Below, piece after piece: positions 33,236 through 52,047 of a stretch of DNA of 64,000 bases. Below the pieces are notes generated by a model that worked only from the letters and a program-made list of their open reading frames with translations, had not been told where the DNA came from and made no database searches. Numbering within the stretch: the first letter of the stretch is position 1; the number at the start of each line of letters is the position of its first letter. The DNA is from Botryllus schlosseri (taxonomy: Eukaryota), in assembly GCA_051294905.1 (NCBI GenBank), contig CM119372.1:27840001-27904000 (forward strand). The letters run 5' to 3'. Position numbers and translations under genes: made by a program.

Positions 33236-33468
33236 ATATTTACTACGATGAAATATTTGATATCGGCGACAATGCGGTGTGAGCGGAATCAAGCAATCCG
33301 GTACCTAAATTACATTCACTGATACTTTCGTGAAAACATATATTTGTCACTCCATAACTCCTGTGCGCGAAGCGCAACAAAATTGCTGGACTTTACGTAA
33401 CTTTTATGAATATTAAATGTTGGTACTACGTGAAAACAGCCCCGAAATTCCTCAGGCTATCTTACGTA

Positions 33469-34028
33469 AGTAGTAGTTATGATCGCTCGTGGTGTGCCAT
33501 TGGTTCTTATGGGCGGGGTGGTGACTCGCCTGAAAACCGGGGGTGGTGACTCGCCTTTTTCTCTTATGGCGGGGGTGGTGAGTCGCCATTGTGTCTTATG
33601 GGTGCGGCCGTGATTCGCCCTTTCAGGTATAGGCTGCGTCGGTGATTCGCCGTGAAAACTCGGGGTCGTGACTCGCCTTTTTTGCTATAGGCGGTGGCGG
33701 TGATTCGCCTGTCGTGTATTCTTACGCGGTCTCTGGTGACTCGCCATGTGTTGTTATGGGTGCGGCCGTGAATCGCCCTTTCAGGCATCTCTCGCACGGT
33801 GTTGAATATGTATCAAGGAAATAGTCATGTGAATGAACCTTTGTTAATGTGTATATCGTAAATTATTATATATGATGTAGTTTAGTCGTGACAAATGACC
33901 GATCGTGTTCTAAGTCTTTCCTCGCTATTGATTCCTACGTAACCTGAATGGCGCGCTGACTTTCAGATCGGATTATTCGCACCTTGTATACCGCTGTTTC
34001 GCACCTACAAAATAGTCTGCTGTTCACA
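33469..34028 (+). repeat. Polinton left TIR
   Basis: Reverse complement of 48739-49298; identical 77-aa translation in both copies. Confidence 0.95.
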
Positions 34029-34071
34029 ACCACAACAAGAATCACAAGTATACACATTATACATTCATTTA

Positions 34072-34515
34072 TTACTCTGAAATCAAACTCTTCACAAAAG
34101 CACGCACAATCGTATCATTCACTTTTTTATCATCCCCAAAATTATTCAAGTATTCCTTGGCTGAAAACCCTTGAGCTCTTTTTATCAAGAATGCTATAGC
34201 ATGATCTCCACACATATCCGAAGTTTTACTTTGTAACTGTTTCCCAGTCACAGAAAATTCATCCGGCTCCAGGAATTCGATTATCTGAGGTTTTAGTGGT
34301 CCGAAACCTAGTGAATCATGAAAATGAGTATCGTCATCTCTGTATATAGACACCCAGTGAGACCCAGGCAAACTCGACTCGTCGTAATTAATGATGATAG
34401 CGAAATTTCCGCTAGTTGGTTTCTTTGGTAACTGATCTACTGGATAAGTTCCTAGATATAGACTTTGTGTGTCAGGGTGGTTATAGAGAATATCGTTGAT
34501 CTCAGACGTATTCAT
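34072..34515 (-). CDS. Adenain-like cysteine maturation protease (PRO), 147 aa
   Basis: GSHWVSIY, FHDSLG, QLQSKTSDMCGDH (His-Asp-Gln-Cys); ATG overlaps the MCP stop; AATAAA overlaps its own stop. Confidence 0.93.
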   Translation of the reverse strand: MNTSEINDILYNHPDTQSLYLGTYPVDQLPKKPTSGNFAIIINYDESSLPGSHWVSIYRDDDTHFHDSLGFGPLKPQIIEFLEPDEFSVTGKQLQSKTSDMCGDHAIAFLIKRAQGFSAKEYLNNFGDDKKVNDTIVRAFVKSLISE

Positions 34516-35777: not shown

Positions 35778-35782
35778 AATTC

Positions 35783-36154
35783 TTAGTCGAATATATCCTG
35801 TTGTTTACGACGACGTTTGGATGAAGTGTTCTTTGACTTTGATTTTTTCCTTTTTATAGCCTTTGGGGTTAAAATTTTATCAATCACTCGACCGCCAGCT
35901 TGTTTACTTCTCTTGACAACACTAGACTTGATCGAGTTACCCCGTAATAGATCTCTCGCTATTTCACCTCCAGTCCGTAACAATTGACCACCGGCGTATT
36001 TCGCAATAGGTGTCACTAAACGACCAAGTGATTTAAACAAACTCCCGATACCGGAACCGGCTTGAACTCCACCACTAAAATATCCATAACCATCGCCTGT
36101 CTGGTTATAATGACGATGGACAGAACGATGATCACACGTGAAAACAACTTTCAT
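35783..36154 (-). CDS. Small basic virion/core protein with Gly-rich cleavage-like sites and amphipathic helix
   Basis: QTGDG, QAGSGIGSLFKSLGRLVTPIAK, Lys/Arg-rich tail ending DIFD; directly upstream of MCP. Confidence 0.8.
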   Translation of the reverse strand: MKVVFTCDHRSVHRHYNQTGDGYGYFSGGVQAGSGIGSLFKSLGRLVTPIAKYAGGQLLRTGGEIARDLLRGNSIKSSVVKRSKQAGGRVIDKILTPKAIKRKKSKSKNTSSKRRRKQQDIFD

Positions 36155-36546
36155 AATCGCTTCCTAATGTTAAATGTAGCTTGCAATGAACGACTTATTA
36201 TATTTATAGGTTCCCCAAACTCATCCCTGAGGTAAAGACATACAGAATCTACAACATCTTTTGAAACAGGGAAATAATACGGATTTGTCGCTATCCAATT
36301 ATGCGTGACATCGCCAGGTGTCAGCGGTATAACTCGTAATAAATGCGCTAACGTATCTCCAAGTAAGTGAGGGTGAATAATATCACAATACACAAACAAA
36401 TATTGGCCAATCGCCGGTTCGGTTAAAGTGAAATCGATCTCCATGAGGGCTAATTCGCAATATCTCGTCGGGATGTTGTTGATGGTGAGTAGTCTGTGTT
36501 CAAAATCAGCACCAAGCATAGAGGTGGTTAACGTCACTATTTTCAT
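36151..36546 (-). CDS. Minor capsid (penton/PX) paralog 3, minimal form
   Basis: ELALMEIDF..YLFVYCDII..LGD..LLRVI..PYYFPV..LYLRDEFG. Confidence 0.82.
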   Translation of the reverse strand: MKIVTLTTSMLGADFEHRLLTINNIPTRYCELALMEIDFTLTEPAIGQYLFVYCDIIHPHLLGDTLAHLLRVIPLTPGDVTHNWIATNPYYFPVSKDVVDSVCLYLRDEFGEPINIISRSLQATFNIRKRL

Positions 36547-37214
36547 CGCGCGTGGAGTGTCAATGTGGTCTCTATATCATGTACTAACTGACCGTATTGG
36601 TCCCTGATGGTGATTTTTATATCGCGGATGTGGTTAATCGACACAGAGAAATAGAACGGTTTTTCAAATACAACTTCTTGTCTCGTACACGTCTCGTTAT
36701 TTACTTGGATCACACGAAGCAATTGACTCATGTAATCACCCACCGGATGATGACGTAGTACATTGATATACACAAATAGATATCTGAGGTGGGGTTGAGT
36801 TGGTTTAGATTTGATCGACGTGACATTACATACTGGTGTCGACACTTGATCAACTACACTGAAATAATTTGTGAATATATCCGTGGGGTGGAGTGTGATA
36901 TGTTTCGGATAACGAATTCGGAAAAGTTCATCGTTGATTCTTTCGGTGAAACAGTGCTTGAAACTTTCAGATAATATTCTTCGCATCAACTCGAGGTTGT
37001 TTGCATAATTCCCAAGTGGTGTTAGGTACGCTTCTACTATTCGATCTTTCTCATTATGTAGGTCCCAGAGTGCTTGATCACGATTGATTATAATTCGATC
37101 AAGAGATTCACTGACAAAACTCATATCCATCAGCGCAAGCTCATTACAAATAATTTCATTCGGTAACACCACCGAGAATTCACCTTGGGTGCCAGACAAC
37201 GTGATGTAACTCAT
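36543..37214 (-). CDS. Minor capsid (penton/PX) paralog 2
   Basis: YITL..FSVVLP..ELALMDMSF..YLFVYINV..VGD..LLRVI..FEKPFYFSV..ITIRDQYG..LTLH. Confidence 0.82.
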   Translation of the reverse strand: MSYITLSGTQGEFSVVLPNEIICNELALMDMSFVSESLDRIIINRDQALWDLHNEKDRIVEAYLTPLGNYANNLELMRRILSESFKHCFTERINDELFRIRYPKHITLHPTDIFTNYFSVVDQVSTPVCNVTSIKSKPTQPHLRYLFVYINVLRHHPVGDYMSQLLRVIQVNNETCTRQEVVFEKPFYFSVSINHIRDIKITIRDQYGQLVHDIETTLTLHAR

Positions 37215-38041
37215 ATTGAGTCAACAGCTCTACGACGGAAGCGTAGGGTTACTGTCACTGGTGCTTTTCTAAATTTAATGGGGTTGCCAGCTGCATCACG
37301 TAGATAAATTCGTATCGTTCTAAAATTGTTTCTTGCTAAAGCAAAGAAGTATGGTTTTGGGAATATATTGATTTGGTTTTCATTCGGTTTAGCGGTTACA
37401 GTAACTACCCGTAAAAGTTGTTGCAGTTTGTTACCGTGTGGTCTTGGTTGTATCAGATCGCAATACACATAAACCTTATCAATCCGTTCCAACTTTATCG
37501 CAGGTGTAAATATAAATTCTACCACACCGCGGCGACGAGATACAACGCGTCTAAATGTTATTGTGTCCAACACAGAACCAAGTGGTGTCAGTCCGTAAGG
37601 CTCGGGTGAATCATGTGTGGTATGGGGTATGTGTTTGTTGCTAGAGTCTGCGGTGTCGGTATTTATGGGTACACCCTGCTTGGGTCTTTTTTTACTCGTG
37701 ACTAATCTTCTGAATGTGATTCTAAAGTCTCCGAATCCTTGTAAAATGAAAATGTCCCCCATGTAATATTTCTCGTACGATTCTAACATTTCACCGATGT
37801 TGTAATACGAGCCTTCGGGAATATAATACCGTTCGGTGTGTCCATTTGCATCGACAAATCCAAAACCGATACTTTTCGCTGTCACTTCAATTCGCGGCTG
37901 AAAGTCATGAGGGAAGGCCAGCTCACATAATCCCAGCTCATGGCGATTCATTTCTAATTCTTTGTAAAGTTCTGTTTGAAAATCTGTGCTAGTATTCGGA
38001 AATTTATCCAAACTCGCATTCGAAGGTAGAGTCAACAACAT
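37211..38041 (-). CDS. Minor capsid (penton/PX) paralog 1, canonical N-terminus
   Basis: LTLPSNASLDKFPNTSTDFQTEL..ELGLCEL..VYVYCDLI..LLRVV..FPKPYF..IRIYLRDAAG..VTLRFRR. Confidence 0.88.
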   Translation of the reverse strand: MLLTLPSNASLDKFPNTSTDFQTELYKELEMNRHELGLCELAFPHDFQPRIEVTAKSIGFGFVDANGHTERYYIPEGSYYNIGEMLESYEKYYMGDIFILQGFGDFRITFRRLVTSKKRPKQGVPINTDTADSSNKHIPHTTHDSPEPYGLTPLGSVLDTITFRRVVSRRRGVVEFIFTPAIKLERIDKVYVYCDLIQPRPHGNKLQQLLRVVTVTAKPNENQINIFPKPYFFALARNNFRTIRIYLRDAAGNPIKFRKAPVTVTLRFRRRAVDSI

Positions 38042-38054
38042 TTTATTGTTTCTT

Positions 38055-38288
38055 TCAACATATACGGTGAGGTGATGGATTCGGTAATAAATAACCAAGT
38101 GAAGAAGACAGTAGCGTTAAATATATTTCACGATCCACCCCGACAGAAATTTGATATAATGAAAACACGATTACACACACTAACATACAAATCTGTACAA
38201 TAAACACAATCTGGTTTTTCAGACTGTTCGAGACTTGACCCATGCGAGATGAGGCGGAATCAGAATCCATAGTTTGGTTGAACAACAT
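38055..38288 (-). CDS. Small two-helix membrane protein
   Basis: Hydrophobic IVFIVQICMLVCVIVFSLYQI and YLTLLSSSLGYLLPNP; fills the gap between integrase and mCP. Confidence 0.72.
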   Translation of the reverse strand: MLFNQTMDSDSASSRMGQVSNSLKNQIVFIVQICMLVCVIVFSLYQISVGVDREIYLTLLSSSLGYLLPNPSPHRIC

Positions 38289-38297
38289 TTTCAGTGT

Positions 38298-39368
38298 CTA
38301 TTTATACAAATCCGAGACCCAGGAATTAAATTTAGACGGGTAACCCAACCATTTTACAAGATATTGTGTTTTCTTTCCTTTCTTGCGAGTAGACAGGATT
38401 TTTTCGATATTGTAAATATTATTATTTTTAGTTATTGGTTGTAACTCTTTACGTTGGAATCTACCGTCTATAACTTCACCGTGGTAGTCTTTCAACTGAT
38501 AAGTAGGAGGGTCACCTTTACGACATTGAGATACGAAAAAGATTTCTTCGGTCCAACTCGCCAAGGCACTTTTTACAAAATTACCACGTGATTTCGAAAT
38601 CCTGACGGGTGTGCCAATAGTTAGTTTGGGTTTTTTGGGGGTCATGTCACCGTATAACCTATGGAAAATTTGTTCTTGATTTGAATAATTAACATCCGCC
38701 GGAGGACACCCTATAGCCACGTGAAAAGTAGTGTTATACCCCTGACATATCTCAGACAGGACACTGACATAATTCAAAGTATTATTATGCGTGAAATAAC
38801 GGTATAACACTTGCTTCAGAGTACGAATAACACGCTCGCATATCGATGCTTTCAGTTCACTATTTGTATGAAAATGTCGCACATTGTTCTCTTTTAAGAA
38901 AGCCTGAAACGCACGATTAGTAAACTCAGAACCCTGATCACTTTGAATAACATGAGGTATACGATCCTTAAATATTTCCTTGAATCCGCGAATAATACCT
39001 TGCGAGGTTTTGTTCTTGAGTGGGTACAGATATAAAAATCGACTGAAACAATCGATCGTCACCAACACATATTTAAAATTATCGTTTTCTTTCGAAAGAT
39101 TTTGCATATGCATGAGATCGGTTTGATACTGAACACCGAGACCGGACGTAATCACTCTAGGTCTCTTAAATTTCTTTCGATAGGGAAAATGTTTTGTGTA
39201 CGCGTCCTTGCTCGAAAGAAACTCCTTGACTTTGGCTCTATTCCGCCCTCTAGAGAATACGTATGCACCGCGATAACTACCGGGTAGCCCTGGCGTGAAA
39301 TACTTAGTATGGCTCCCATCCGTATCGTCTCGGGGTCTTGGGTGTACGACCGCTTTTCGTCGGAGCAT
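38298..39368 (-). CDS. Retroviral-like (RVE) DDE integrase with C-terminal chromodomain
   Basis: YQTDL, TIDCFSRF, IQSDQGSEF, ASICERVIRTLK; chromo YNIEKIL..YLVKWLGYPSKFNSWV. Confidence 0.95.
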   Translation of the reverse strand: MLRRKAVVHPRPRDDTDGSHTKYFTPGLPGSYRGAYVFSRGRNRAKVKEFLSSKDAYTKHFPYRKKFKRPRVITSGLGVQYQTDLMHMQNLSKENDNFKYVLVTIDCFSRFLYLYPLKNKTSQGIIRGFKEIFKDRIPHVIQSDQGSEFTNRAFQAFLKENNVRHFHTNSELKASICERVIRTLKQVLYRYFTHNNTLNYVSVLSEICQGYNTTFHVAIGCPPADVNYSNQEQIFHRLYGDMTPKKPKLTIGTPVRISKSRGNFVKSALASWTEEIFFVSQCRKGDPPTYQLKDYHGEVIDGRFQRKELQPITKNNNIYNIEKILSTRKKGKKTQYLVKWLGYPSKFNSWVSDLYK

Positions 39369-39699
39369 GCTGAGTCTTTACTTTGCTTCGTTGGCTACTC
39401 GGTGATGGTATAGGAATCCTTGATGGTTCACCCTTGATCAGACGTCGCAGCGCGTCCAACTCACTAGCCGAAAATAGACTCCTTTGTTCTGATATATCGA
39501 TTTTCATCGGTTGATTCAGCGTGTCGTGTTTTATTTGATAACGATTTAGCGCGTCGTTATATAAGGCTAATTTTCGTTCTTGGGGTATGTTCATCTGTAA
39601 TATGTCACTCATACATTTGTCGATATCCAAATTCAATTTCTGAACGTCAGCTCCGTTGATCGGGCTCGGATTTATGAAGATTTTTTTAAAAGAAGTCAT
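39304..39699 (-). CDS. Polinton protein of unknown function (conserved slot upstream of integrase)
   Basis: IDKCMSDIL..ERKLALYNDALNRY helical motif; ATG overlaps the upstream stop. Confidence 0.7.
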   Translation of the reverse strand: MTSFKKIFINPSPINGADVQKLNLDIDKCMSDILQMNIPQERKLALYNDALNRYQIKHDTLNQPMKIDISEQRSLFSASELDALRRLIKGEPSRIPIPSPSSQRSKVKTQHAPTKSGRTPKTPRRYGWEPY

Positions 39700-40043
39700 T
39701 TTTTGAAAAGATTACCAAGTAAACCAGTGACGACGGGTAGGATGCTTGATAATAGAGTCATAAACATACCCCCATTCTGATTAAACATACGTTTTTTATG
39801 TCGAATAGGGATGTCTTTCCTGACAAGTCGACGTAAACTACATTTATGAGCTGATAGTCGCTTTCTTTTATACTTTGAAAGAGGGATGTTACCGTTTAAA
39901 ACGTTCTTTGTACAATCACATATACACTCGATCAACTCTTTGCTGGCACCCGATATAATTTGCTTGCGTATCTCGGGTTTACTTTTATGTAGAAACTCTA
40001 GTGTGGGTATATGCCGCCGTGTCCGAGCTGGTACCTTGGGCAT
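39696..40043 (-). CDS. Small basic Polinton protein with C-terminal amphipathic helix
   Basis: RKQII..ELIECICDCTKNVLNGNIPL..KKRMFNQNGGMFMTLLSSILPVVTGLL. Confidence 0.82.
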   Translation of the reverse strand: MPKVPARTRRHIPTLEFLHKSKPEIRKQIISGASKELIECICDCTKNVLNGNIPLSKYKRKRLSAHKCSLRRLVRKDIPIRHKKRMFNQNGGMFMTLLSSILPVVTGLLGNLFKK

Positions 40044-40076
40044 TTTGAGTTTAAAGTCGTCTCTGTGCTTGGCTAT

Positions 40077-40688
40077 TTATACCATCGGGCTATAAACCAC
40101 CATGGTTTCACCAGGAAATATATTGGTCATAACTCGTCGATTTTCAGGTGCTTCTTGCGTGAGATCGAGGAATAAATAACTATGAGGTTGTCTAGCAGCG
40201 TCACGATAAGCCTCTGTTAAAAATCTAGAGTTTGGGTACATTTGTCGACCAAGAAAACTGATCTGCTGTTGGTCGCGCGGATTCTTGAAAATCACCATAT
40301 ACGAGCTTGAGAGACTCAAGTCACGTGCTCCTTTACCCTTGTGGTACAGGTTCTGCGTGACATAGCAAATTGATTTGGCTGAATGATGAGAAAATCTTGT
40401 AAAGTAGTCTGCAATTTTCGCCGTCTCAGTCATGAAATCATCCACTATAATCAAGGTGTCTTCAGAGCAAACCTTCAACTCTTCTAAAATATCTAGACCG
40501 GCGTGGAATTCTACGTTATGCATCGTCTTGAAAACCCCCTGATAATTATTGTAACAATATACGACCCTGGATACACTAGGTTTAATCATTGATGTCGCAT
40601 GCCTAATCAGCTTTGCAACAAAAGTAGTCTTCCCACTTCTTGAAGGACCACTCACAATACACGCGAATGGGTGGATCAATTCCATCAT
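40077..40688 (-). CDS. A32/FtsK-like genome packaging ATPase
   Basis: Walker A GPSRSGKT, Walker B LIIVDD, SHH, VTQNLY, IFKNPRD. Confidence 0.95.
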   Translation of the reverse strand: MMELIHPFACIVSGPSRSGKTTFVAKLIRHATSMIKPSVSRVVYCYNNYQGVFKTMHNVEFHAGLDILEELKVCSEDTLIIVDDFMTETAKIADYFTRFSHHSAKSICYVTQNLYHKGKGARDLSLSSSYMVIFKNPRDQQQISFLGRQMYPNSRFLTEAYRDAARQPHSYLFLDLTQEAPENRRVMTNIFPGETMVVYSPMV

Positions 40689-40730
40689 TTGTTGTTTATT
40701 GAAACTCGATAAAGTGCGCGTGTTTATATA

Positions 40731-41199
40731 TCAACAAGGTTGGGAATATCCACTGTTGTAGTCATCTTGTTCTAGTGGAATATATAAACCCAGTAGAGTT
40801 CGATTTAACAATTTTCCCTGGGTTATGAAATCTTCATCTGTCCCTCGTAATTTCGTCAGTGGAAGTTGTAGTGTTACAAACGCTTTATTCAGGTTGTCAA
40901 GCAGCTGATCCCAATCTGTAAAATAATAAATCACATAAGAGGATTCATACCACGAGAGGATTCATAGAGCTTTAAAATATAACAGGGTTACTATAACAAC
41001 TATAGATCTCGCCTTTTGAACACTCTTTTAAATCTTTATGTTGTGTCGATACGCGTTGTTCGTATAATTCATGCGATATCTCTCGATTCAAATACAGCTC
41101 CACGAAGTGTACATGATCGCGGCGTTGTACAAGTGTCTTTTCGTGTAACCGAGTCAGACCTGCTTGTTCTAGAACAGCTATTATGTAATCACTAGCCAT
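40731..41199 (-). CDS. Orphan protein B, two exons (41199-41013 and 40915-40731), paralog of 41318-41845
   Basis: Acceptor TTTTACAG at 40916; in-frame donors (GC at 41012 or GT at 40991); joined product aligns with orphan A. Confidence 0.6.
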
Positions 41200-41317
41200 C
41201 TGTAAAAACAAGACACAGATATCAGAAAATGTTGTTACTAAAATGTTTCCATTACAAGTTGACATTTTGAAAACACCCGCAGATTGTAAACAAAGTTTCA
41301 CCTAAAACTATCAGTGT

Positions 41318-41845
41318 TCACCACAGATTATGTTCACAATGACCAAGAGAATCATGTTTGCAAAAATCATCGGTTGTAGCATCACTACTTTCAGAGTCAG
41401 AACGAGGTCGTTTCAAACTGTTTGCGACTCTATGTTGATCAAGGAAAAATTGGAATTTTCGATGTCGCTTGCGCGTTATCAAGTAGGCTCGTCTCTCTTC
41501 GTGACCGAAAAGCGGTATCCACGAACAATTTTTTCCCAAGACCACATAATTTGTCAGCTTTGCTCTGTTGAATAGGATGTGGTTATCACTCGGTGTCTTT
41601 CGATCAGGAAATTGTAGTTGAAGTAGCGCTTCTATGCAGACACTTCGGACACGGGTCCATTTCTCGTCTAGTTCCCGACGGCGCGCCTTGGATCGATCGG
41701 GTATCGTGCGGTCTTGTGAGTTGTCGTCGGTACCGTGAATCGAGAGCTGTGTTAATTCCTGCTCCATTTCAAGCGTCTCTTTGTGCAAACTATTTAAATC
41801 CAATTCTGACATTACTGACTCAATATATGAAATAGCGTTATCCAT
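41318..41845 (-). CDS. Orphan protein A, 175 aa
   Basis: ATG directly after TTTTGTTTTCCAG; similarity to orphan B; basic NLS-like RKRHRK and KRPR. Confidence 0.65.
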   Translation of the reverse strand: MDNAISYIESVMSELDLNSLHKETLEMEQELTQLSIHGTDDNSQDRTIPDRSKARRRELDEKWTRVRSVCIEALLQLQFPDRKTPSDNHILFNRAKLTNYVVLGKNCSWIPLFGHEERRAYLITRKRHRKFQFFLDQHRVANSLKRPRSDSESSDATTDDFCKHDSLGHCEHNLW

Positions 41846-41942
41846 CTGGAAAACAAAAGACACATCAACACATAAAAAATACAAATAAATCATAATAATA
41901 GCAGACACACAGATAAAATACAATAGCACACAAAATATACAA

Positions 41943-44900
41943 TTACACATTTAATGGTAGGGTCGACACACCGTCCTCAAGCACTCTACGTTTGGCGTAG
42001 AAATAGGATAATGTTTTACGCTGCTGTTCGTACGTATAAACACCCCCATCTCTGCAGCGAAACCCCTTGTTCACTCCCCCCGCGGCTTCCTTAGATGTCA
42101 AGACCTCCAGAAAAGTGTTGAAGTCGATTTGAGCGGATTTCTGGAGGCCTTTGGAAGCCAGTTTTTTCTTTGGCCCATCGCAAAAGTAATTTTTGGATTG
42201 GAGTCCGCAGAAGGATGTACCACCTTCGTACTCCACTTTCATCAAACCCGGTTGACGAAGGTAATAGGCATACGTGTCTTTGCAACACTGTCTCGATCGG
42301 TCAAAAGAAACCGGATCAGTCAAAAACTCAGTTCGGTGCTCATCACAAAAATAACGCGGAAACCAGTTCTCGTATTCAAGATAAAATTCATCCCTTTTCT
42401 CGGGGATAAGAATATCATCGAATGAGGCTGAATGCGAGAGATAGAGGGAGTCTGTGTCCATCATTAATAGCATGAAGCACTCGTCACGGAAATATTTACA
42501 CAAGCAGTCATAAAAAAACGACAGCATCTTGAGCTTAGCATTGTTATACACCCAGAATCCCACTTGAATACAGTTACCCCACTTGATCGTTTTAGGTCGC
42601 TTCGTTATTTCAAATAGATCAGCGTGCAATTCATCATATTTCACAAAAAAACGATCCTTCACGTTGACGTCCAATTCACTTTTATCGCAGAAGGTGGTTC
42701 GTTTGAATTTACGTGGATTCATCAAGACGCGGCCATAACTACTATTTCCGGCTAATTTTTGTGTCAGCGCAATAATCTCCAGGTTAGGGTCACGGTCCCC
42801 AGCACGTCGACAGTCTGAGACATTTTTCGCAAAGTTGTCAAAACAGGTCTTTTTTGTGAATTCGACCGCCTCATGAATTTTGGATATAATCAATCCGTGT
42901 TCTACATACCACTTGATCAAGTCAGAGGTCAACAAGATTTTCTTACCCCAGTATGAAGCAACTAGCATGCGCGTGGGTTTGGGGAGCAATTTACGATCAA
43001 TGGCAAACTGTTTCATGTGCCCTGACAAATGCTCGCGAGATACCATCGTATTTTTGAATATCGGACATAGTTCAACAAACTTCCTTTGCAAATTTTTTGG
43101 CGTAAAAATATCAACTGATAAACACCCAAAGAATGTACCGGTCATTACCATCTCCATCAATTTATGCGCGGTGACAGACTTGGTTCTATTCAACTGCGGT
43201 TGGATGCCATTAAGATAGCGCACAATATCAGGATTTTCCTGTTTCTCCGTGCGCCAGTCGCATTCCCATTTACATATGACTTGATAATTGAGGCTTTTGT
43301 AATAATCATGAACACGTTTAGTCCGTTCTCGACGTTCCAAGTCATCACAGCCAAATCTGCACTGATGTGCATGAAAATGACATCCAAGAAAAGACAAGAT
43401 TACCCCTTGACCAGCTGAATTACGATAGAACCCATCAGCAGGATAATTACGTGCTCCTACGCGGATTTCAGGTCCATTAAAAGCATGGTGGACATGTACA
43501 TTGTGAATGTGAGAATACCAGTTTAGCCATTGAGCTGCTGTCTCCCCCCATTTCGGCGCGGTCTTCACCGGTTTGAATTTAGTACACTCAGCATCGAGTG
43601 GTTGCCAATGTACCGGGAAACCGGTTGGACTAGGTTCACTCAAAGCAAAAAGGTATAACGAATTGCTGTCCAGCCCTGTTACATGTTGGGTAATCTGAGC
43701 GTTTTCCTTATAAAAAACTTCTTTGATTCGAGTTTCACCCTGTTTTTGATATCGATGGAAAATGACCGACGGTCCGCCCACTAAATTGTCTCTAAATAGC
43801 GAAACCAGATCTTGGTGTTTATCATTGAACAAGGTGAAATCACGCGGAATGCTATTGAAAAGATGTCTTGATACAACCCCAGGTAGGGAGACAGCTTCCT
43901 TGAATATATCCACACTGAACTGACTTTTGAAAGATTGAAATTGTTTTTCTAACCCCTCAATGAAGTAGTGAGTATCGATTGCGTTGTACCATTTGAGATA
44001 ATCACGTAAAGTTGTCATTTTGTTATCGTTCCAAACCTTCAAACAGTTTTCATATTCAGCTGTGGATATATTACGATCTTTTAGCGAGCTGTAAAAGTCG
44101 CTGTGGCTAGGAAGACTCGGATAATCTAACTTTTCCAAACTAGTCAGAAACTCGTACGGAAAATGACCCTTAGCGGCGCTACATTTGAAGGCTTTCAAAT
44201 AAGCATCGTACGAGAACCCGGGTGCCAAGTAATTTACAATATCCAAAAATTTAAGTCTGTTCGTTGTCAACGATAGGAAGTTGTTACCCCGTTTCAATAC
44301 ACTCAGATTTTCATCAATGAGTAAACCAATCAAGTACTCTTTGAGACAGTTCAAGTCATACCGACCGCCATTGAACGATAACACAGGGATTTGTTTTAAA
44401 TATCGCATGAGCTCCTCTTGTAAACGTTCAAGTGGTATTTTTTTCTCGGAAGGATCGAGTGCTTTCATTTCGGTAATTTTAGTTTCGAGTATGTCCAAGT
44501 AGTGTTGATATTTCATCTGTAACAACCTAAATGACTCACTTTGAATATCATGAAAATGATCAACCATTTCCGCACACAAGTCGTTTGGGTCGCCGTTCGA
44601 GACAATTACATACGGTTCCAAGAACCCTTCCACATTAGAAGAGATGCTAACTGAGATGGGGATATGTTTACACTCCCATGAAGTTTTGGAGGAATCTGGA
44701 ATATCACACTTTTCAAACATGCTCTCTATATCGAACGCGATACGGTATTTGAAATAACGAAGCTGGTGAGGAACAAACACTCCTTCTAGATCAAGTTTTT
44801 CAAAGATGTTCAGAGGAGGTGTATACACGCCACCGGGAAACACTTCAACAGGACCCGTTGCACATTTATGTCTGGTCAATTCATACTGCAAATTGAAAAA

Positions 44901-45785
44901 TCTTTCGCAAACATCACATTGATAGCTCTCAGCGTAACGGAATATATCAGTAATCAGACAGAAATGGTTGCTTTCTAAATGTAAGTACACAGGCTTCGCT
45001 TCAAACGTACTACGGCGGATTGCGACAGCTTTACCCTCAGTTTTTGTGTACACAAATACGGCCACATTAAACAAGTCCTCGATATCGTCCAGCATGTCAA
45101 GAGTTACACCAGATTCCACGTTGACACCATACACCGACATGAACTGTTGAGCCAGTGCTTTTGTATCTTTTCCTAGTGAGTGCGCGATACAGCGAAAAGC
45201 ACACAGATTGTCGTTGTAGAGATGTCGATTTTTTCGACGAAGCATTGTCAAGATGCATTTCGATTGCGCAAGCCATGTCGGTAGCTTAATACCGGTGCAA
45301 CCAATCAACACACCATCGGTAGGATATACATAAAACTGTACATTAGTCAGACAGACCGGCAGTGACTTTGTGTTTGTTCGAGAATTTCGTAATAAATCAA
45401 GCGCCGTTTCCAACCTTATAGACTCAACAAATTCATTGAATTTAGCTAGTGTTGAAATCGCCGCCGGTGTTTCTAATACACTATCAACATTCGCCGATGC
45501 GTGAAAATAACGAAATCTCAGAGTCTCGACGTGGTACAAAATAAATGCATACGCGAAATTGACTTTGAAACGGGTCGACTCTGAGAAAAATATAGCTTGT
45601 ATATCGCGGAAAACATCCGCTAGCTCCCGACCAATGACTCGAATATTATAGACATGACCAGTCTTTTTCACTACATACGATTTTATCGCTTGCCAGTTCT
45701 GAGTAACAACTTCTTGGCGTTCGTCCCCAATCTCTGGTGGTGCATTCGGTTCTTCGCGAACACGATTCCGTCTGCGTCGACTCAT
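41943..45785 (-). CDS. Protein-primed family B DNA polymerase (pPolB), 1280 aa
   Basis: Exonuclease IAFDIES / FNGGRYD / YNAID; polymerase DSNSLY, KLAGNSSYG, MDTDSLY; N-terminal TP/vOTU-like region, Zn finger, Vsr-like insert. Confidence 0.97.
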   Translation of the reverse strand: MSRRRRNRVREEPNAPPEIGDERQEVVTQNWQAIKSYVVKKTGHVYNIRVIGRELADVFRDIQAIFFSESTRFKVNFAYAFILYHVETLRFRYFHASANVDSVLETPAAISTLAKFNEFVESIRLETALDLLRNSRTNTKSLPVCLTNVQFYVYPTDGVLIGCTGIKLPTWLAQSKCILTMLRRKNRHLYNDNLCAFRCIAHSLGKDTKALAQQFMSVYGVNVESGVTLDMLDDIEDLFNVAVFVYTKTEGKAVAIRRSTFEAKPVYLHLESNHFCLITDIFRYAESYQCDVCERFFNLQYELTRHKCATGPVEVFPGGVYTPPLNIFEKLDLEGVFVPHQLRYFKYRIAFDIESMFEKCDIPDSSKTSWECKHIPISVSISSNVEGFLEPYVIVSNGDPNDLCAEMVDHFHDIQSESFRLLQMKYQHYLDILETKITEMKALDPSEKKIPLERLQEELMRYLKQIPVLSFNGGRYDLNCLKEYLIGLLIDENLSVLKRGNNFLSLTTNRLKFLDIVNYLAPGFSYDAYLKAFKCSAAKGHFPYEFLTSLEKLDYPSLPSHSDFYSSLKDRNISTAEYENCLKVWNDNKMTTLRDYLKWYNAIDTHYFIEGLEKQFQSFKSQFSVDIFKEAVSLPGVVSRHLFNSIPRDFTLFNDKHQDLVSLFRDNLVGGPSVIFHRYQKQGETRIKEVFYKENAQITQHVTGLDSNSLYLFALSEPSPTGFPVHWQPLDAECTKFKPVKTAPKWGETAAQWLNWYSHIHNVHVHHAFNGPEIRVGARNYPADGFYRNSAGQGVILSFLGCHFHAHQCRFGCDDLERRERTKRVHDYYKSLNYQVICKWECDWRTEKQENPDIVRYLNGIQPQLNRTKSVTAHKLMEMVMTGTFFGCLSVDIFTPKNLQRKFVELCPIFKNTMVSREHLSGHMKQFAIDRKLLPKPTRMLVASYWGKKILLTSDLIKWYVEHGLIISKIHEAVEFTKKTCFDNFAKNVSDCRRAGDRDPNLEIIALTQKLAGNSSYGRVLMNPRKFKRTTFCDKSELDVNVKDRFFVKYDELHADLFEITKRPKTIKWGNCIQVGFWVYNNAKLKMLSFFYDCLCKYFRDECFMLLMMDTDSLYLSHSASFDDILIPEKRDEFYLEYENWFPRYFCDEHRTEFLTDPVSFDRSRQCCKDTYAYYLRQPGLMKVEYEGGTSFCGLQSKNYFCDGPKKKLASKGLQKSAQIDFNTFLEVLTSKEAAGGVNKGFRCRDGGVYTYEQQRKTLSYFYAKRRVLEDGVSTLPLNV

Positions 45786-46381
45786 CTGTAAAATTAATAA
45801 CACGTGGTCAAATTCAGCACTTTGGGAACATGAAACTAGTCTTACTTACAATCTAGTTTCTTTGTTGGTGTCTTCGATTCTTTATGCTTAATAAAACAAG
45901 TAACACATCAATCTATGTCCACTAACGTTGTGTTATAGCAGATAACTTACCAGTAGACTCGTGCGTTCAACTTGAGTCGCTCTGTCTGTTCAACAACAAA
46001 ATCATTACATCATGTTCACTAGTTCTGAACAGTAATAACCCACCTATGCAATTCTTTACTTCAATTCCGACGCTTGTTTTGTCTGTAGGATAAACGAATA
46101 ACATATTACGTTCATAAATCAAAGTAATCGTACCGAATAACTTACTAATTAACTCCTTATCCAGCAATCCGCGATCGAATATATCCAGACAGCCAGCCAC
46201 GTTGTTCGCTGTTCGACGTCCGGAGAGAAAGACCTAAACCGCTGATTCGAGATTACACGAGCACCGGCGCCACTAGTGGTTGAATTTCAGAAGCTATTAT
46301 TTATGGCTCTAATGTAAAATCTGAAACGGAAAACAGAAATTGAGAATACACACTCACAACAATGAAAATCATGCAGCGCAA

Positions 46382-47266
46382 TCACAAATTATACTTCAAT
46401 TTCGTTCTAATTTCTAGAAGTCGATGCAAGTACTCATCGGTTGCGGTATTTAATTCAGGTTGAATCTCATCGAGACTCCAGCGCTGACCCTTGACAGCAA
46501 GCAATCGTTTGATGTCAGTCATGAGCTTTGTGACTGTCAAATTTTTTTTCTCTATCAACGAGTCAACATAGCATAGTATTGAACCTAAATGCGGTTTAAC
46601 ATCGTCAATAGTTTGGAGGTGGGTGATCATCTTGTCAACTGTGTATTGACATAGTTTTTCTTCCTGCTTCTTCTTACCCTTCACATCGTCGCGAAAATCG
46701 TCGTCACTCACGCTTTTAGATTTCACAGGTTTCTTGCCAGCCTTCTGTCTGGATTCGATACGACTTGAATTTTTCAATTTCACATTATGAAGCTGTTTAG
46801 CCGGTGGTATGCCTAATTCCGCCGTCGTCGATATTGTTCTTTTTCGAACTCTCTTCCCGGTTGATGCAGATTTAGGAGTATCAACCACTGATAGCGGCTC
46901 AGCGGAGCGTGGTAACGTCACCCCAGAAGTCGACGGCTTCTCAGCACTCGGTAATTCGACGCTAACTTCCGCCTCATCGAACGGTACACACGGTGTCGTC
47001 ACCAAGTTTGTGAGGTCATTAATCACGCTTTCTCTAGCTAGTTGACCCGACTTCAGCCACGCCTGGTGCGCTATATCTGCATGGTTTGGTCGCATTTCGA
47101 TCGTTGTAGTAGAGTCGCGTTCTGTGGCTTCAACCCTTACATCAGGCGTCATCAGATCCCCAGGATTAATCGCGTCAAAGATATCCGCATTCTCTTCAAA
47201 TTGCGATTCAAATGCGTTTGGTTCATAACCAAATTTATCAAGATTATCTATCTGAGCCTCGGCCAT
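46382..47266 (-). CDS. Orphan 294-aa protein: acidic N-terminus, low-complexity basic middle, helical C-terminus
   Basis: Long ORF with strong start context (ACAATGG), TATA box upstream, NLS-like KRVRKR. Confidence 0.7.
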   Translation of the reverse strand: MAEAQIDNLDKFGYEPNAFESQFEENADIFDAINPGDLMTPDVRVEATERDSTTTIEMRPNHADIAHQAWLKSGQLARESVINDLTNLVTTPCVPFDEAEVSVELPSAEKPSTSGVTLPRSAEPLSVVDTPKSASTGKRVRKRTISTTAELGIPPAKQLHNVKLKNSSRIESRQKAGKKPVKSKSVSDDDFRDDVKGKKKQEEKLCQYTVDKMITHLQTIDDVKPHLGSILCYVDSLIEKKNLTVTKLMTDIKRLLAVKGQRWSLDEIQPELNTATDEYLHRLLEIRTKLKYNL

Positions 47267-47473
47267 TGTATAATAATCGATCTAACTGCTCCAACCAACG
47301 TTTATGTCTGCGACAGTGAAATATAACAACCGGGTCGCGGTGTTGTCTATTTATAGATTTAATTTTCACACGCTTACACAGACCCCTTCTTTCTAGGTGA
47401 TCGAGCGGTATATTTCACCATTTTAACACCTCGCGGTGTCATGGTTTACTTTTTCAGTTGGTAGTTACTCGTT
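47267..47473. promoter_or_regulatory. Divergent promoter region
   Basis: Lies between head-to-head ORFs; CTATTTATAG at 47347-47356 reads TATAAATA on the minus strand. Confidence 0.5.
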
Positions 47474-47938
47474 ATGGCAACTAGTGTGATCATTGAGAAT
47501 TACCTTCTGTATTATCATAACGTAACAACCCCCACCTTGAGCGAAACGGAAAAATTCATCCACAGAGTGGTAGATTTCTATGTACATGGAGAAAACGTGA
47601 ACCGTGTTCGAAAGTGTGATTTCGCTGCCTTGGTTAACTCGATTCGATCATATGGCGTCGACTGGAATGGTGTTTTTAGTGTCATAAGCGTTGCGGCGAT
47701 GAAAAGCGACATTCATTCCATTGTGGTGTACAGAGATTTAACAACAAACATCTTGAATACTCACTACAGTACATTGATAAGCGACTGGGTAAGAGGAAAA
47801 TGGTCCTGCCTCATAACACCTTATGAACGGCATCCTTTTGTACAGAATTCCTGTAAAGTCTACTTCAAACCAAGTCTATTCGCACGGATCATCAGCGTTA
47901 TACAAAGGCTGTTAACCTGTTTTATAACACGTGGTTAA
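47474..47938 (+). CDS. Putative divergent Bcl-2-like protein
   Basis: BH4-like VIIENYLLY, BH1-like FAALVNSIRSYGVDWNGVFSVISVA, BH2-like DWVRGKWSCL, hydrophobic C-terminal helix. Confidence 0.55.
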   Translation: MATSVIIENYLLYYHNVTTPTLSETEKFIHRVVDFYVHGENVNRVRKCDFAALVNSIRSYGVDWNGVFSVISVAAMKSDIHSIVVYRDLTTNILNTHYSTLISDWVRGKWSCLITPYERHPFVQNSCKVYFKPSLFARIISVIQRLLTCFITRG

Positions 47939-47946
47939 TTCTATAA

Positions 47947-48600
47947 ATGACGATTGATTTGTTGATGACTCTCACTTTACCAAACGATATGACATCGAAC
48001 AGCGTCAGCAGTATGCAAGTCGGATCAACTTCAAATTTTCACGTCGGCGTCAAATTCGTTTCATCACCCAAAAGAGGCGGCGTTTGTCAATATCTCAAAG
48101 GTATATTCATCGACGGTAATAATGAAGAGATATCTTTCACGTGTTTCAATCGTGAATTGTTCGGGGTCATTGAGAAAGCATTCAACAAACGAAAAAAACT
48201 TATGGTCAAATCCGGTTGGGTCCAAATTGACAAATTTACTGGAAAACCTGCTGTATTACTGGGACGGGCTTCGTCAGTAACCCTACATGGAAAATCGAGA
48301 CATACGACTGAAGAATACCCATTATTGACCTGTGAATTGGTATACGGGCATAAAGCTGAATACGTGTCGATCGCCGCTACGTGTGTTTCTCGAGAGGAGA
48401 AGATGGTCAATTCTGGTACCGGAAAGGAGTTGAAATTATATAGTTTTACATTGAAGGATGATACTGGTGAGGTGGTTTTGGATCAATGGAACAAAGCCTC
48501 ACTCGTACCCGGGAAGAAATATCAACTCACTCGTGTTAAAAACTGTGTCGACAGATTGAGAATCGATCAGTTAACTAGACTTGTTGAATTGAAAGAATAG
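47947..48600 (+). CDS. Putative tandem OB-fold ssDNA-binding protein (RPA-like); true start may be a downstream ATG
   Basis: Two repeats: GIFIDGNNEEISFTCFN and FTLKDDTGEVVLDQWN..LVPGKKYQL. Confidence 0.65.
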   Translation: MTIDLLMTLTLPNDMTSNSVSSMQVGSTSNFHVGVKFVSSPKRGGVCQYLKGIFIDGNNEEISFTCFNRELFGVIEKAFNKRKKLMVKSGWVQIDKFTGKPAVLLGRASSVTLHGKSRHTTEEYPLLTCELVYGHKAEYVSIAATCVSREEKMVNSGTGKELKLYSFTLKDDTGEVVLDQWNKASLVPGKKYQLTRVKNCVDRLRIDQLTRLVELKE

Positions 48601-48738
48601 TTTGCGTATTTGTACCCTGTAATACAATATTTCCATTCACAAGAAATGTTTGACCTATGTGATTCGACAACTGGGTTAGCGCGGTGTTGTTCTACTACTC
48701 AAGGTGCGAAAATTGCGCTATCGCGGTGAAGTCGAGAC

Positions 48739-49298
48739 TGTGAACAGCAGACTATTTTGTAGGTGCGAAACAGCGGTATACAAGGTGCGAATAATCCGAT
48801 CTGAAAGTCAGCGCGCCATTCAGGTTACGTAGGAATCAATAGCGAGGAAAGACTTAGAACACGATCGGTCATTTGTCACGACTAAACTACATCATATATA
48901 ATAATTTACGATATACACATTAACAAAGGTTCATTCACATGACTATTTCCTTGATACATATTCAACACCGTGCGAGAGATGCCTGAAAGGGCGATTCACG
49001 GCCGCACCCATAACAACACATGGCGAGTCACCAGAGACCGCGTAAGAATACACGACAGGCGAATCACCGCCACCGCCTATAGCAAAAAAGGCGAGTCACG
49101 ACCCCGAGTTTTCACGGCGAATCACCGACGCAGCCTATACCTGAAAGGGCGAATCACGGCCGCACCCATAAGACACAATGGCGACTCACCACCCCCGCCA
49201 TAAGAGAAAAAGGCGAGTCACCACCCCCGGTTTTCAGGCGAGTCACCACCCCGCCCATAAGAACCAATGGCACACCACGAGCGATCATAACTACTACT
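48739..49298 (-). repeat. Polinton right TIR
   Basis: Reverse complement of 33469-34028, ending CTACTACT. Confidence 0.95.
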
Positions 49299-52047
49299 TA
49301 CGTATTGGGGTATTAAACTACTTCTACTTGACAAACTGAAAATAGCGAAAAGTAAGTAAGTACATCACAAAATATTACGAAGTAGAAGTAGAGAAAATCA
49401 GATCTACTTGAGTAATTACCAGAAGTAGAGGAAAACTACTTGAGTACTTCGAAAAAGTAGAAGTACTTCGTTACTGACCACCTCTGCATATTTCGAAGCT
49501 ACAGTTGTATGATTCAACCGTGACCAAAAGAGTTACAGCAATGTCAGTCGATCTTTTATCGCATGTTCTGAAGCACGTTGCCGCGTAGATTACTTTAGCC
49601 TAGCATTGGACGAATTCACCGACTCCACAGACATAGCTAATTATCTGGGTGCATTTTATCAGAGTGGACATATTTGCAGAGGAAATGCTGGCTGCGCAAA
49701 CGTGGGAGGGTGACCAGCGAAAAACATCAACTTGACAAAGCTAACTTATGTAATGTAACTAATGGTGCAGGGCCCCTGTCAAAGAATGAAAGGAGAAGTG
49801 TTGATCGGTTTGCTCAGAAATGACCCCGAACGCCAGACTTCTTTTATTACTGAGAGCTCAATGTGATAATGGCCTCTGTAACGAAAAAGTGACCGTAATT
49901 TTATACTTGCTCGCTCACGCTTTGAAGCAGATAGTTCGGTTCTGTGGTGGAAGGGTTCAAAGGCCCGCAGCGTCTTTTGCTGTTAAAATGCGGCCCGTTA
50001 TACAAGGGAAGTTGAGAACTCCTGCCCTAATATCAGCATATCCACTAAGCAACATTTATTTGAAGTTCATTCGTAAGTTACATACCTTTTGTGACGTCAT
50101 AAGAAAATGGTTCTCATTTAAACGTTGGTAATAGACTTATATTGGTTCCTTCACTTCTTTAACTTTAGAAATGAAATTAATACGCTGGAGAATACCACTA
50201 AAATTTTTGACTCGGCCCGCCAACGTATTTCCTGCTTCTCATTTGGCCCGCGGAGAGAAATAATAATTGTCCATCCCTGGTCAAGAGCGACCACACTCAA
50301 AATTAACCTAATCAATAATATAGATTACCAAGTATTTCGCACTATTGGAAATTATTATTATTCGGCTTCTTAGACACCGTTAATTTGAGTAATATTAGTT
50401 GTAATGGTGCATTCGTAAATGATGACACCTTTAACCTCATCAGCGATTAGTTGGTGGGTGAAATCCGGCTTTAAAATAAACTGATCTGAAAGTCTTGCCC
50501 TGGTACAGAATAACAAGTTTCGCGAGACCGAATGAGAAAGGGACCACGAAAATATTTCCACGTGGTACTGGGACTGCATTGAAAAGTTTCCCTTTTCTGG
50601 CCTCGACACCAATGAAAACCAGCGCAAGCATAACCTACAGCGTTTATTACACTACATATTAATCGGTACTGTAAAATGGCGAACGTCGATAGGTAAACGT
50701 GCTGTACGTACAAAACAACATGGAAAAGGTAACACTACTGCAAATATGAAGCATTTTTACAGCCTAGACTTGATATGTACCGGATACAAGAGCTATAAGA
50801 AATTGCAATGAAGTTAAGAAAACTGGCGCCATCGACCAGAACAGGTGGGTAGATACAATCACTAAAAGCAGTGTACGTGGCAACTGGTCATTCTGTGACA
50901 GCAATAATTTCAATTTTCTACTTATAAAATGCACACTGCAACTGATATTTAGGAATATTTCAGATTGACAGGTATTTCAACAGCAAAATACCATTTCACT
51001 GTATGCGACGGAAATTGATAGGCACAGAATTCGACTTCAACAGTCCGGATTGGATATCCGAGTCACATTTTAATCAGATTGATCCTTGCAATTTCTGGGA
51101 GACCTGTTTTGGGCGTACGAATCTGGATGATCCGAATCTTCGTCGGTACTGCTTTTGTGATTTACTAGATACGGATATGGTTGTGATACATAACGTTCCA
51201 TAGTCGTAATGGTAGGCACACACTAGGTTGCGAATGAGCTAGGTAGTGAGAATATATGTGACATGTACGTTATTGCATAACTTCTACTATTTGGCGTGCT
51301 AAATATATGCGAACATAATTACGAAAATAGAAGAGCATTGATATTGGAAGCGTAGTCTTTTGGCAATTAATCATACAAAGACTTAATCATAAAATGAAAG
51401 TTGATAGTCAGACTCTACAATTCCTACAATTACATTCGAGGTCACAGTACACGGATTCAACATCTGATTTCACTATTGACATTAAGACAAAATGAAGGTT
51501 TTTGAAGAGGTTCAAAAGTGTTGCGGCATTGATTTGCTGCAAATGAACTCGAATAGATAGTTATGCCTGTGCAAAATAGATAAAATCTTTTGGACGGATT
51601 ACTTCACGGCATAATTCGGATAATATTGACGGAATAAAGCTTGGAGTCGAATTGACTAGGGCTGCGATAAGACGAAATCTGGAGATTTGGAATTGCTTTT
51701 TTGCGGGATTGAAATCACTGGCAGTTGTCGAAAAATGGTTGACAAAGATGTAAAATAGATGGGTATCGTCATAAATTTAGATTTTTGGAATATTGGGAAA
51801 AACTGAAGCTCATATAAAGAGGTTGGACGTGCTCATAAATTTGAACCTTAGAATTAATTCAACAATTAATAAAAGTATGGTATGAGTAATAGTGGATAAT
51901 GTATACTGCATTTAGTCTGAGTGTGAAGAATGAGTTGAGAAATATAACAAACTACCGAAATACTACAAATAAGCTATACGGCAAACTACAGTCGAGATAA
52001 GATCTTTGGTAGATTAGATAACAGGTAATGAGCGTAGAGAGGTAAGA

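Follow-up and report, generated by a model that had tools for sequence, protein, structure and literature searches.

Organization of the locus

The window, i.e. the whole stretch of 64,000 nucleotides analysed here, contains a Maverick/Polinton element of 15,830 bp (33469-49298) that encloses the genes of PolB, orphan A and orphan B (Table 1). The element resembles known Maverick/Polinton elements (polintoviruses) in its long TIRs, its 6-bp TSD (TACGTA, seen against a paralogous empty site), its protein-primed PolB, its retroviral-type integrase (rve-chromo, PF00665 and PF00385 in Pfam) and its ATPase, for which the Pfam match is weak. With a protein-primed PolB and an rve integrase located between long TIRs, and a TSD within the usual 5-6 bp, it belongs to this group. 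The ORFs from 34072 to 38041 have no Pfam match.

The host genome harbors well over 100 copies of the element. A first look at the DNA level gave 132-142 candidates, 40 of which were scored and display 89-100 % identity, while 349 candidates were found at the protein level. PolB has no internal stop in 26 of the 35 scored copies, and the splice signals described below are invariant in the copies with an intact PolB; the element is young and recently active. PolB has 66 relatives, most of them covering 95-99 % of its first 420 residues. A six-frame search of the genome with PF03175 gave no match, nor did it in the control genomes, and is therefore uninformative. A divergent PolB probe aimed at other clades gave 35 scored matches, all of the same family as the element in the window.

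On the minus strand, PolB is preceded by ORF1 and followed by orphans A and B. ORF1 has no significant similarity to PolB (E 0.06), and there is thus no sign that it represents a split-off terminal protein; neither ORF1 nor orphan A had a usable match in the Atlas searches. The TATAAATAG box has three exact matches in the window, all of them within the element and on the same strand, before ORF1 and before two later blocks. Orphan B contains an intron with GC...AG ends in the window copy and GT...AG ends in 29 of 30 copies, and its spliced frame of 123 aa is kept in 21/30. No scored genomic copy lacks this intron (0/40; 39 copies measure 1269-1321 bases and one is truncated). Downstream of orphan B, the depth of RNA run X24 falls from ~60 in bin 40412-40902 to 0 in bin 39921-40411.

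Table 1. Features of the element in the window, with the evidence for each; rows follow the minus strand after the element ends.
Feature	Positions	Strand	Evidence or remark
TSD, left (TACGTA)	33463..33468		Both junctions aligned with the paralogous empty site 21900-21990; end sequences
Left TIR, 560 nt	33469..34028		Inverted repeat arms of 566 nt, 100 % complementary including the palindromic TSD
Right TIR, 560 nt	48739..49298		Followed by the TSD copy at 49299-49304
TATAAATAG box upstream of ORF1, putative promoter of the PolB-side unit	47347..47355	-	27/27 copies having the column
ORF1, 294 aa, no family match	46382..47266	-	Frame open with terminal stop in 21/28 aligned copies
Acceptor (pyrimidine tract + CAG), candidate SL site and predicted start of the PolB leader	46321..46340	-	Sequence; AG 28/28
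PolB leader exon 1 (5' end predicted)	46146..46320	-	3' end from X3 contig joint 46082>46146
Leader intron 1, 63 nt, GTAAGT...ACAG	46083..46145	-	X3 joint skips 63, depth 4.05, 1 contig; 28/28
PolB leader exon 2, 132 nt	45951..46082	-	Flanking X3 joints
Leader intron 2, 64 nt, GTAAGT...TAAG	45887..45950	-	X3 joint 45886>45951 skips 64, depth 5.12, 1 contig; 28/28
Mini-exon, 37 nt	45850..45886	-	X3 joints on either side
Leader intron 3, 64 nt, GTAAGT...ACAG, abuts the PolB ATG	45786..45849	-	X3 joint 45785>45852, depth 5.12; 28/28
pPolB, protein-primed family-B DNA polymerase, 1280 aa	41943..45785	-	PF03175, E 3.1e-08
PolB-A spacer, 97 nt, T-rich, ends in SL acceptor A	41846..41942	-	15 X24 reads; AG/ATG 30/30
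Orphan A, 175 aa	41318..41845	-	ORF of at least 164 aa in 28/30 copies
A-B spacer, 118 nt, ends in SL acceptor B	41200..41317	-	74 X24 reads; AG/ATG 30/30
Orphan B exon 1, 187 nt	41013..41199	-	X24 joint
Orphan B intron, 97 nt	40916..41012	-	Joint 40915>41013 in 69 X24 reads and in X1 and X3 contigs
Orphan B exon 2, to TGA 40733-40731	40731..40915	-	Spliced product 123 aa
AATAAA, the only one of the proposed unit, putative common poly(A) signal	40695..40700	-	After orphan B

Splice signals at the start codons

A pyrimidine tract and CAG directly abut the start codons of PolB (...ttattaattttacag/ATG, the slash marking the junction; AG 45787-45786, ATG 45785), orphan A (...cttttgttttccag/ATG; AG 41847-41846, ATG 41845) and orphan B (...cttgtttttacag/ATG; AG 41201-41200, ATG 41199) on the minus strand, exactly to the base as claimed in a first-pass annotation. 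The GTAAGT donors that it placed at 45950 and 45849 are present as well, and the 64-nt intervals 45950-45887 and 45849-45786 flank a 37-nt segment (45886-45850). Among the further acceptors that it proposed, the one at 46321, located 61 nt past the ORF1 stop, is strong (tract ttctgttttccgtttcag/), whereas the one at 46234 (cggtttag/) is poor in pyrimidines and has no RNA support, and was dropped. There is no acceptor before the ORF1 ATG.

We scored ATGs with a rule demanding YAG at -3..-1 and at least 12 pyrimidines among the 20 positions -23..-4. Over both strands of the window, 14 of 2246 ATGs pass (0.62 %, the three sites counted), compared to 3 of the 14 ORF starts on the minus strand of the element (binomial P ~8e-5, in a post hoc test where A and B are possibly duplicates of one site). 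GTRAGT is enriched in the 596-nt PolB leader, with four occurrences versus 0.3 expected (P(>=3) = 0.004), and occurs a single time between the PolB ATG and acceptor B, at 44539. Two other GTRAGT were rejected as donors, as they are not conserved: the one at 46711 has GC in 12/28 copies, and position +4 of the one at 46357 varies among copies.

The AG/ATG is invariant in all 30 aligned copies at A and at B and in all 28 at PolB. The 28 copies likewise show no variation in any letter of the three GTAAGT donors, in the AGs that close the first two leader introns (46083 and 45887) or in the acceptor at 46321. That the acceptors at the three start codons are real splice sites, as the first-pass annotation proposed, is supported. 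Since A and B have near-identical acceptor tracts and a common N-terminal motif (9/22, E 0.004), they probably represent one evolutionary event.

Cis-spliced leader of PolB

Both 64-nt introns predicted upstream of PolB, and the mini-exon of 37 nt between them, are seen as joints in contigs of run X3, along with a third intron of 63 nt (46145-46083) that had been missed; these joints come from single contigs of depth 4-5 in a run that is presumed to be RNA. The joint at the PolB ATG skips 66 with 2 letters between, which equals 64 plus one variant base, found in 14/28 genomic copies. The contigs support a leader with three cis-introns of 63-64 nt, the third of which ends in the PolB acceptor. 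In this reading the acceptor is paired with a donor and cis-spliced, as predicted by the rule that the spliced leader (SL) is added only to acceptors without an upstream partner donor, described in PMC1488885. The leader measures 344 nt and is non-coding, with tiny uORFs only; its introns are present in every one of the 40 genomic copies scored (lengths 682-710). In X3, the depth on PolB itself resembles that on A and B.

Two other joints were discarded. The X1 joint 45784>47047 (skips 1262) has GT..GA ends and comes from a run that is even over 30 bins, hence DNA-like; it may reflect a deleted copy or an artefact. The X3 joint 41857>41939 (skips 81) has non-canonical AT..CT ends and is read as an indel between copies, 30 of which have PolB-A spacers between 64 and 114 nt long.

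A host spliced leader is joined to orphans A and B

At the acceptor of orphan B, 74 raw RNA reads of run X24 stop matching the window at 41201 and go on with the letters of the SL (agreement 0.79), and at that of orphan A, 15 reads do so at 41847 (agreement 0.96). The continuation has the same letters at both sites and reads ...ACATGGG and GATTGGAGTATTTGGTTGTATTA on the sense strand, then AG/ATG. Because the X24 reads at both acceptors run into the SL, we conclude that orphans A and B are SL trans-spliced exactly at the AG. Their mature mRNAs begin with SL/AUG, and the SL makes up the whole 5' UTR. Coverage drops abruptly going upstream past these positions: acceptor B separates 110 reads (41178) from 17 (41279), and acceptor A separates a depth of ~21 from one of ~0.5. 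The first-pass annotation had offered SL trans-splicing as one option and an adenovirus-like shared leader as the other, and had proposed a search for SL-containing reads at the AGs. For A and B, this search decides for the former, the 89 reads carrying the host SL and not the leader exons upstream of PolB. No SL junction at 46321 or 45786 is found among the 18 loose read ends listed, outside which there are 174 more.

The X24 run is labelled 'organism A' whereas the DNA run that best contains the window is labelled 'organism B', and the X24 reads may come from the copies of a close relative; only 268 of the 1129 reads placed are at least 99 % alike to the window. A search for runs containing the window listed none of RNA, and another RNA run, X21 ('organism B'), has 0 reads on the window and is thus uninformative.

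The leader joined at A and B is 25 nt long and equals the 'Chordata 1' SL, a 25-mer given in Table 1 of PMC3795323. The genome has 316 matches to it (154+162) versus 0 for the reversed control, and the 64-kb window has none at up to 3 mismatches; the SL belongs to the host and is foreign to the element. Out of 12 SL loci fetched, six have AAG/GT, and an AAUUYUGG Sm-like site with a 3' hairpin is common to four. Six loci submitted to Rfam gave 0 matches at E up to 1, and the fold of the SL RNA displays no compensatory changes. The host encodes SL RNA genes, with an SL exon, a GT donor and an Sm-like site. In the reads, the SL is preceded by a run of G that is non-genomic, most SL loci having T there, in line with an SL at the 5' end of the RNA. 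Such a run is consistent with non-templated addition during template switching, its source presumably being the template-switch oligo.

Models of the transcription unit

The explanation that we favor, and consider likely as a whole, is a replication-side block in which A and B receive the host SL, PolB has a cis-spliced leader, and all genes would be part of a single unit. ORF1, PolB, A and B would be transcribed together, beginning with the TATAAATAG box (47355) and ending with the only AATAAA (40700). PolB would receive the SL at 46321, the first unpaired acceptor of the unit, and competition for SL addition among 46321, 41846 and 41200 would yield nested, 3'-coterminal capped mRNAs, as in SL-resolved operons. 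A and B do occur on one RNA: the A-B spacer is covered by X24 reads, and one X3 contig extends over 41213-41847. Contiguity of PolB with A, or of ORF1 with PolB, is not seen in the RNA runs, nor is a polycistronic precursor in X24, whose reads are nearly absent from PolB and from the region upstream of acceptor A.

These X24 data agree equally well with a short outron transcribed from an internal promoter. A and B, and perhaps PolB, could then be trans-spliced without any operon, each being expressed from its own weak internal promoter with the SL replacing a short outron, as happens in the majority of trans-spliced ascidian genes. The X24 depth (~0.5 upstream of acceptor A, 21 on A and 60 on B) and the TATATTTT stretch directly after the PolB stop agree with this scenario, as does the statement in PMC1488885 that most trans-spliced metazoan genes are monocistronic. 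However, the TATAAATAG box is absent before PolB, A and B while three other blocks have one, there are no poly(A) signals between the cistrons (no AATAAA in the spacers of 61, 97 and 118 nt), the A-B spacer is contiguously covered, and the X3 depth on PolB is similar to that on A and B. We regard such internal promoters as rather unlikely.

It is more improbable still that the expressed source is an A/B cassette, either retained by the host or borne by a satellite, so that the SL sites would serve a domesticated gene pair and not Maverick replication. X24 expression is indeed limited to A/B and the right-end plus-strand ORFs, and the reads part from the window copy right after orphan B; their continuations, for which the consensus agreement is only ~0.6, occur in 0 of the 30 closest copies and nowhere in the genome at up to 3 mismatches. 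Nevertheless, PolB adjoins the cassette in all 30 of its best genomic matches, just as it does in the window, copies with an intact PolB carry these signals without variation, and X3 covers PolB too.

An adenovirus-like arrangement, in which one early promoter and the element's own multi-exon leader would serve PolB, A and B by alternative cis-splicing, finds some basis in the leader exons and three introns joined onto the PolB ATG in X3 and in the enriched donors, but for most A and B mRNAs the 89 reads that break at their acceptors and carry a host SL absent from the 64-kb window contradict it, and with no joint from a leader donor to 41846 or 41200 among the best-supported joints, to which the list is confined and beyond which minor isoforms from the 45849 donor to A or B are possible, we consider it very improbable.

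Going one step further than the favored single-unit explanation, we propose tentatively, at somewhat less than even chances, that the Maverick has come to depend on the host SL machinery and that ORF1-PolB-A-B is a genuine viral operon in which competition among three SL acceptors determines the product.

Discussion

Ascidian SL trans-splicing is described in Ciona, where one SL is added at unpaired AG acceptors and all downstream genes of same-strand clusters are SL-capped, the SL being optional for the gene at the 5' end of the cluster (Satou et al. 2006, PMC1488885). The element is similar in using a single host SL, at AG acceptors that are probably unpaired. The Ciona acceptors lie in host genes, whereas here they are found in a mobile virus-like element and directly adjoin the start codon. 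Most Ciona operons, as described there, have no intercistronic DNA, the upstream poly(A) site being the downstream acceptor; the element has spacers of 61, 97 and 118 nt that lack AATAAA. With the operons of Caenorhabditis, whose intercistronic regions measure ~100 nt (quoted in PMC1488885), it shares a spacer length of about that size and a T-rich tract before the acceptor. In contrast to Caenorhabditis, which has a dedicated SL2, the element uses one SL and has no poly(A) signal upstream of each spacer.

Adenovirus splices a tripartite leader and an E2 leader onto its mRNAs. The element shares with it a protein-primed PolB, a multi-exon non-coding leader, short introns and an acceptor at the ATG, but only PolB uses the element's own leader, and its neighbors take the host leader in trans. 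For A and B, the element thus borrows host trans-splicing where an adenovirus would use a leader that it encodes itself. Mavericks and SL trans-splicing have both been known for long; a full-text search, outside which most subscription journals lie, found no paper that connects the genes of Mavericks, Polintons or adintoviruses with SL trans-splicing.

Start codons fused to SL acceptors show how a mobile DNA virus fits its expression to the RNA processing of one host lineage, and SL acceptors explain how each of several closely packed same-strand genes can give a capped mRNA without its own promoter. Poor expression of such elements is predicted after their transfer to hosts without that SL. 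The unpaired polypyrimidine-CAG/ATG provides a simple signature for annotating Maverick genes in SL-using animals, and with its more than 100 near-identical copies, the element is a natural system in which to study how paired and unpaired acceptors are assigned to cis- or trans-splicing. If the SL-dependent operon is real, its nested 3'-coterminal mRNAs would owe their cap and whole 5' UTR to the host, and the integrated state would make mainly the small A and B proteins, in a latency-like programme. It would then be, as far as our literature search shows, the first DNA virus-like element with SL-dependent expression, and the AG/ATG signature would mark the hosts in which such elements work.

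Acceptors and donors on the minus strand

The first-pass annotation had described splice acceptors abutting the start codons of PolB and of the orphan ORFs A and B, together with two GTAAGT donors and two 64-nt intervals before PolB, and the minus strand matches this description exactly. A simple acceptor rule holds for 14 of the 2,246 ATGs of the window. The element has 14 ORF starts on the minus strand, and three of the qualifying ATGs are among them (post hoc P about 8e-5). In the 596 nt preceding PolB, GTRAGT occurs four times, against 0.3 expected. On the plus strand, an acceptor-like tract, tttactttttcag, lies at 47445-47457, 16 nt 5' of the ATG of the ORF at 47474-47938; it is unchanged in 16/16 genomic copies having the region, the other 12 of 28 being gapped there, their match to the window starting at about 47365 and extending downwards.

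Features of the element, its splice sites and its introns
Feature	Position	Strand	Details	Evidence
Maverick/Polinton element	33469-49298		15,830 bp, 560-nt TIRs	inverted repeat and empty-site comparison
TATAAATAG box	47347-47355	minus	before ORF1	
TATAAATAG box	40073-40081	minus	before ORF at 40043	
TATAAATAG box	38298-38306	minus		
PolB leader joint	46146/46082	minus	63-nt intron removed	X3 contig
PolB leader joint	45951/45886	minus	64-nt intron removed	X3 contig
PolB leader joint	45850/45785	minus	64-nt intron removed	X3 contig
GTAAGT donors	start at 45950 and 45849	minus	set off two 64-nt intervals, with a 37-nt segment between them	sequence
PolB acceptor (1280-aa ORF)	ATG 45785	minus	pyrimidine-rich tract and CAG directly before ATG	sequence
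Orphan A acceptor (175-aa ORF)	ATG 41845	minus	pyrimidine-rich tract and CAG directly before ATG	sequence
Orphan B acceptor	ATG 41199	minus	pyrimidine-rich tract and CAG directly before ATG	sequence
Orphan B intron	41012-40916	minus	97 nt	69 X24 reads; X1 and X3 contigs

Orphans A and B receive the host spliced leader

A run search listed no RNA run containing this sequence; two raw RNA runs (X24 and X21) and two contig sets of sequencing runs (X1 and X3) were compared with 34029-48738. X21 has no reads matching this interval. X24, whose species label may differ from that of the assembly, has 1,129, nearly all within 40412-41884 and only 268 of them at least 99 % alike. The match ends at 41201 (acceptor B) in 74 X24 reads and at 41847 (acceptor A) in 15, with the same continuation in both: on the sense strand, ...ACATGGG, a match to a template-switch oligo, then GATTGGAGTATTTGGTTGTATTA, AG and ATG. 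Across acceptor B, read depth drops from 110 (41178) to 17 (41279); across acceptor A, it drops from about 21 to about 0.5. The leader sequence has no match in the window at up to three mismatches and 316 in the host genome, compared to none for a reversed control. The 25-mer on the reads is identical to the 'Chordata 1' spliced leader (SL) in Table 1 of PMC3795323. Since the reads breaking at both acceptors continue into an SL of the host genome, the mRNAs of orphans A and B are trans-spliced to it, and their AUG follows the SL directly. Of the two mechanisms proposed in the first-pass annotation, these reads support, for A and B, trans-splicing over an adenovirus-like leader.

Among 12 genomic SL loci fetched, AAG/GT is present in six, and four loci have in common an Sm-like site, AAUUYUGG, with a conserved hairpin after it, for which no compensatory changes were seen among the compared loci; an Rfam search of six SL loci gave no match. 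The base before the SL is T at most genomic loci versus a run of G in the reads, which is consistent with non-templated nucleotides having been added to the 5' end of the RNA. At five loci (L009, L010, L015, L019 and L020, the last two being one unit repeated about 1.8 kb apart), unrelated sequence directly follows the SL with no GT donor; possible origins are retro-copying of SL-bearing mRNAs or decay of SL genes.

Cis-spliced introns of orphan B and the PolB leader

The donor of the orphan B intron is GT in 29/30 copies and GC in the window copy alone (C for T at 41011); in 21/30 copies the spliced reading frame encodes 123 aa. Three introns are removed from the PolB leader in X3 contigs, including both 64-nt introns anticipated from the sequence; each joint is seen in single contigs at depth 4-5, the X3 depth profile is uneven like that of X24, but X3 was classed as RNA by an automated guess. 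As the PolB leader introns are present in all 40 genomic copies scored (lengths 682-710) and none in the scored set lacks the orphan B intron, the joined forms are unlikely to derive from DNA.

A Maverick/Polinton element present in many copies

A 566-nt perfect inverted repeat flanks the region on both sides, placing the PolB-side genes inside a mobile element. Comparison with a paralogous empty site identifies its outermost six letters, the palindrome TACGTA, as the target-site duplication, which therefore sets the element bounds and TIR length. With Pfam matches to protein-primed PolB, an rve integrase with chromodomain and, weakly, an ATPase, the element is a Maverick/Polinton. It is inserted in another repeat family (flanks 33340-33468 and 49299-49487), whose foldback-like copy at 21758-22037/22891-23170 provided the empty site. 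The TIRs hold four to five degenerate direct repeats of ~55 nt (at 33487-33788 and 48979-49223; families D3 and D4). A C2H2 zinc-finger-like motif (C..C...H...C/H spacing) occurs in the translated N-terminal part of PolB (~44860-44925, minus), and PF00096/PF13894 zinc-finger domains are annotated in many of 66 distant PolB relatives.

Many copies are present in the 495.5-Mb host assembly: two DNA probes gave 132-142 first-look candidates (40 scored, identity 89-100 %), and a PolB protein probe gave 349, with 26/35 scored copies free of internal stops. AG/ATG is identical at orphans A and B in 30/30 copies, and the three GTAAGT donors, three AGs, the acceptor at 46321 and the PolB ATG are all unchanged in 28/28. 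Conservation of the three PolB leader introns equals or exceeds that of the exons (0.96-0.98 versus 0.93-0.95); the orphan B intron shows the lowest conservation of its region (0.88), and third codon positions are the most variable. Orphans A and B have in common an N-terminal motif (9/22, E 0.004) and near-identical acceptor tracts, and are probably tandem duplicates.

A putative ORF1-PolB-A-B transcription unit

According to a passage of PMC1488885, the SL goes only to acceptors without an upstream partner donor, paired acceptors being cis-spliced. Sorted by this rule, the PolB acceptor is paired and cis-spliced, and those of A and B are unpaired and SL-taking. The acceptor at 46321, the first unpaired one upstream of PolB, would then be the SL site for PolB, with a predicted spliced leader of 344 nt from 46320 containing uORFs of 2, 1 and 12 codons.

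The three TATAAATAG boxes of the 64-kb window all lie in the element on its coding strand, against 0.86 expected in the full 64 kb, and resemble promoters, one for each of three gene blocks; the box before ORF1 is unchanged in 27/27 copies that have it. No such box precedes PolB, A or B, the 61-, 97- and 118-nt spacers contain no AATAAA, and the sole AATAAA comes after orphan B; we therefore infer a single ORF1-PolB-A-B unit with a putative precursor, from which competing SL addition would produce nested 3'-coterminal mRNAs. Internal promoters with short outrons, in place of one precursor, are a live alternative. Elsewhere in the element, TATATAAAC precedes the ATPase ATG by about 35 nt. X24 also shows expression of right-end genes (depth 10-13 over 47777-48738), and X3 contigs cover left-end genes (34029-35010) at depth about 50, leaving 35993-40411 uncovered; the element appears to be expressed in patches, not uniformly.

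In the full-text literature searched, which excludes most subscription journals, we found no paper that connects SL trans-splicing with genes of Mavericks, Polintons or adintoviruses. Unlike Ciona operons, the element has spacers between its cistrons and, unlike adenovirus, its A and B genes take a host leader in trans. In its way of working, it resembles the SL-resolved gene clusters of ascidians and nematodes.
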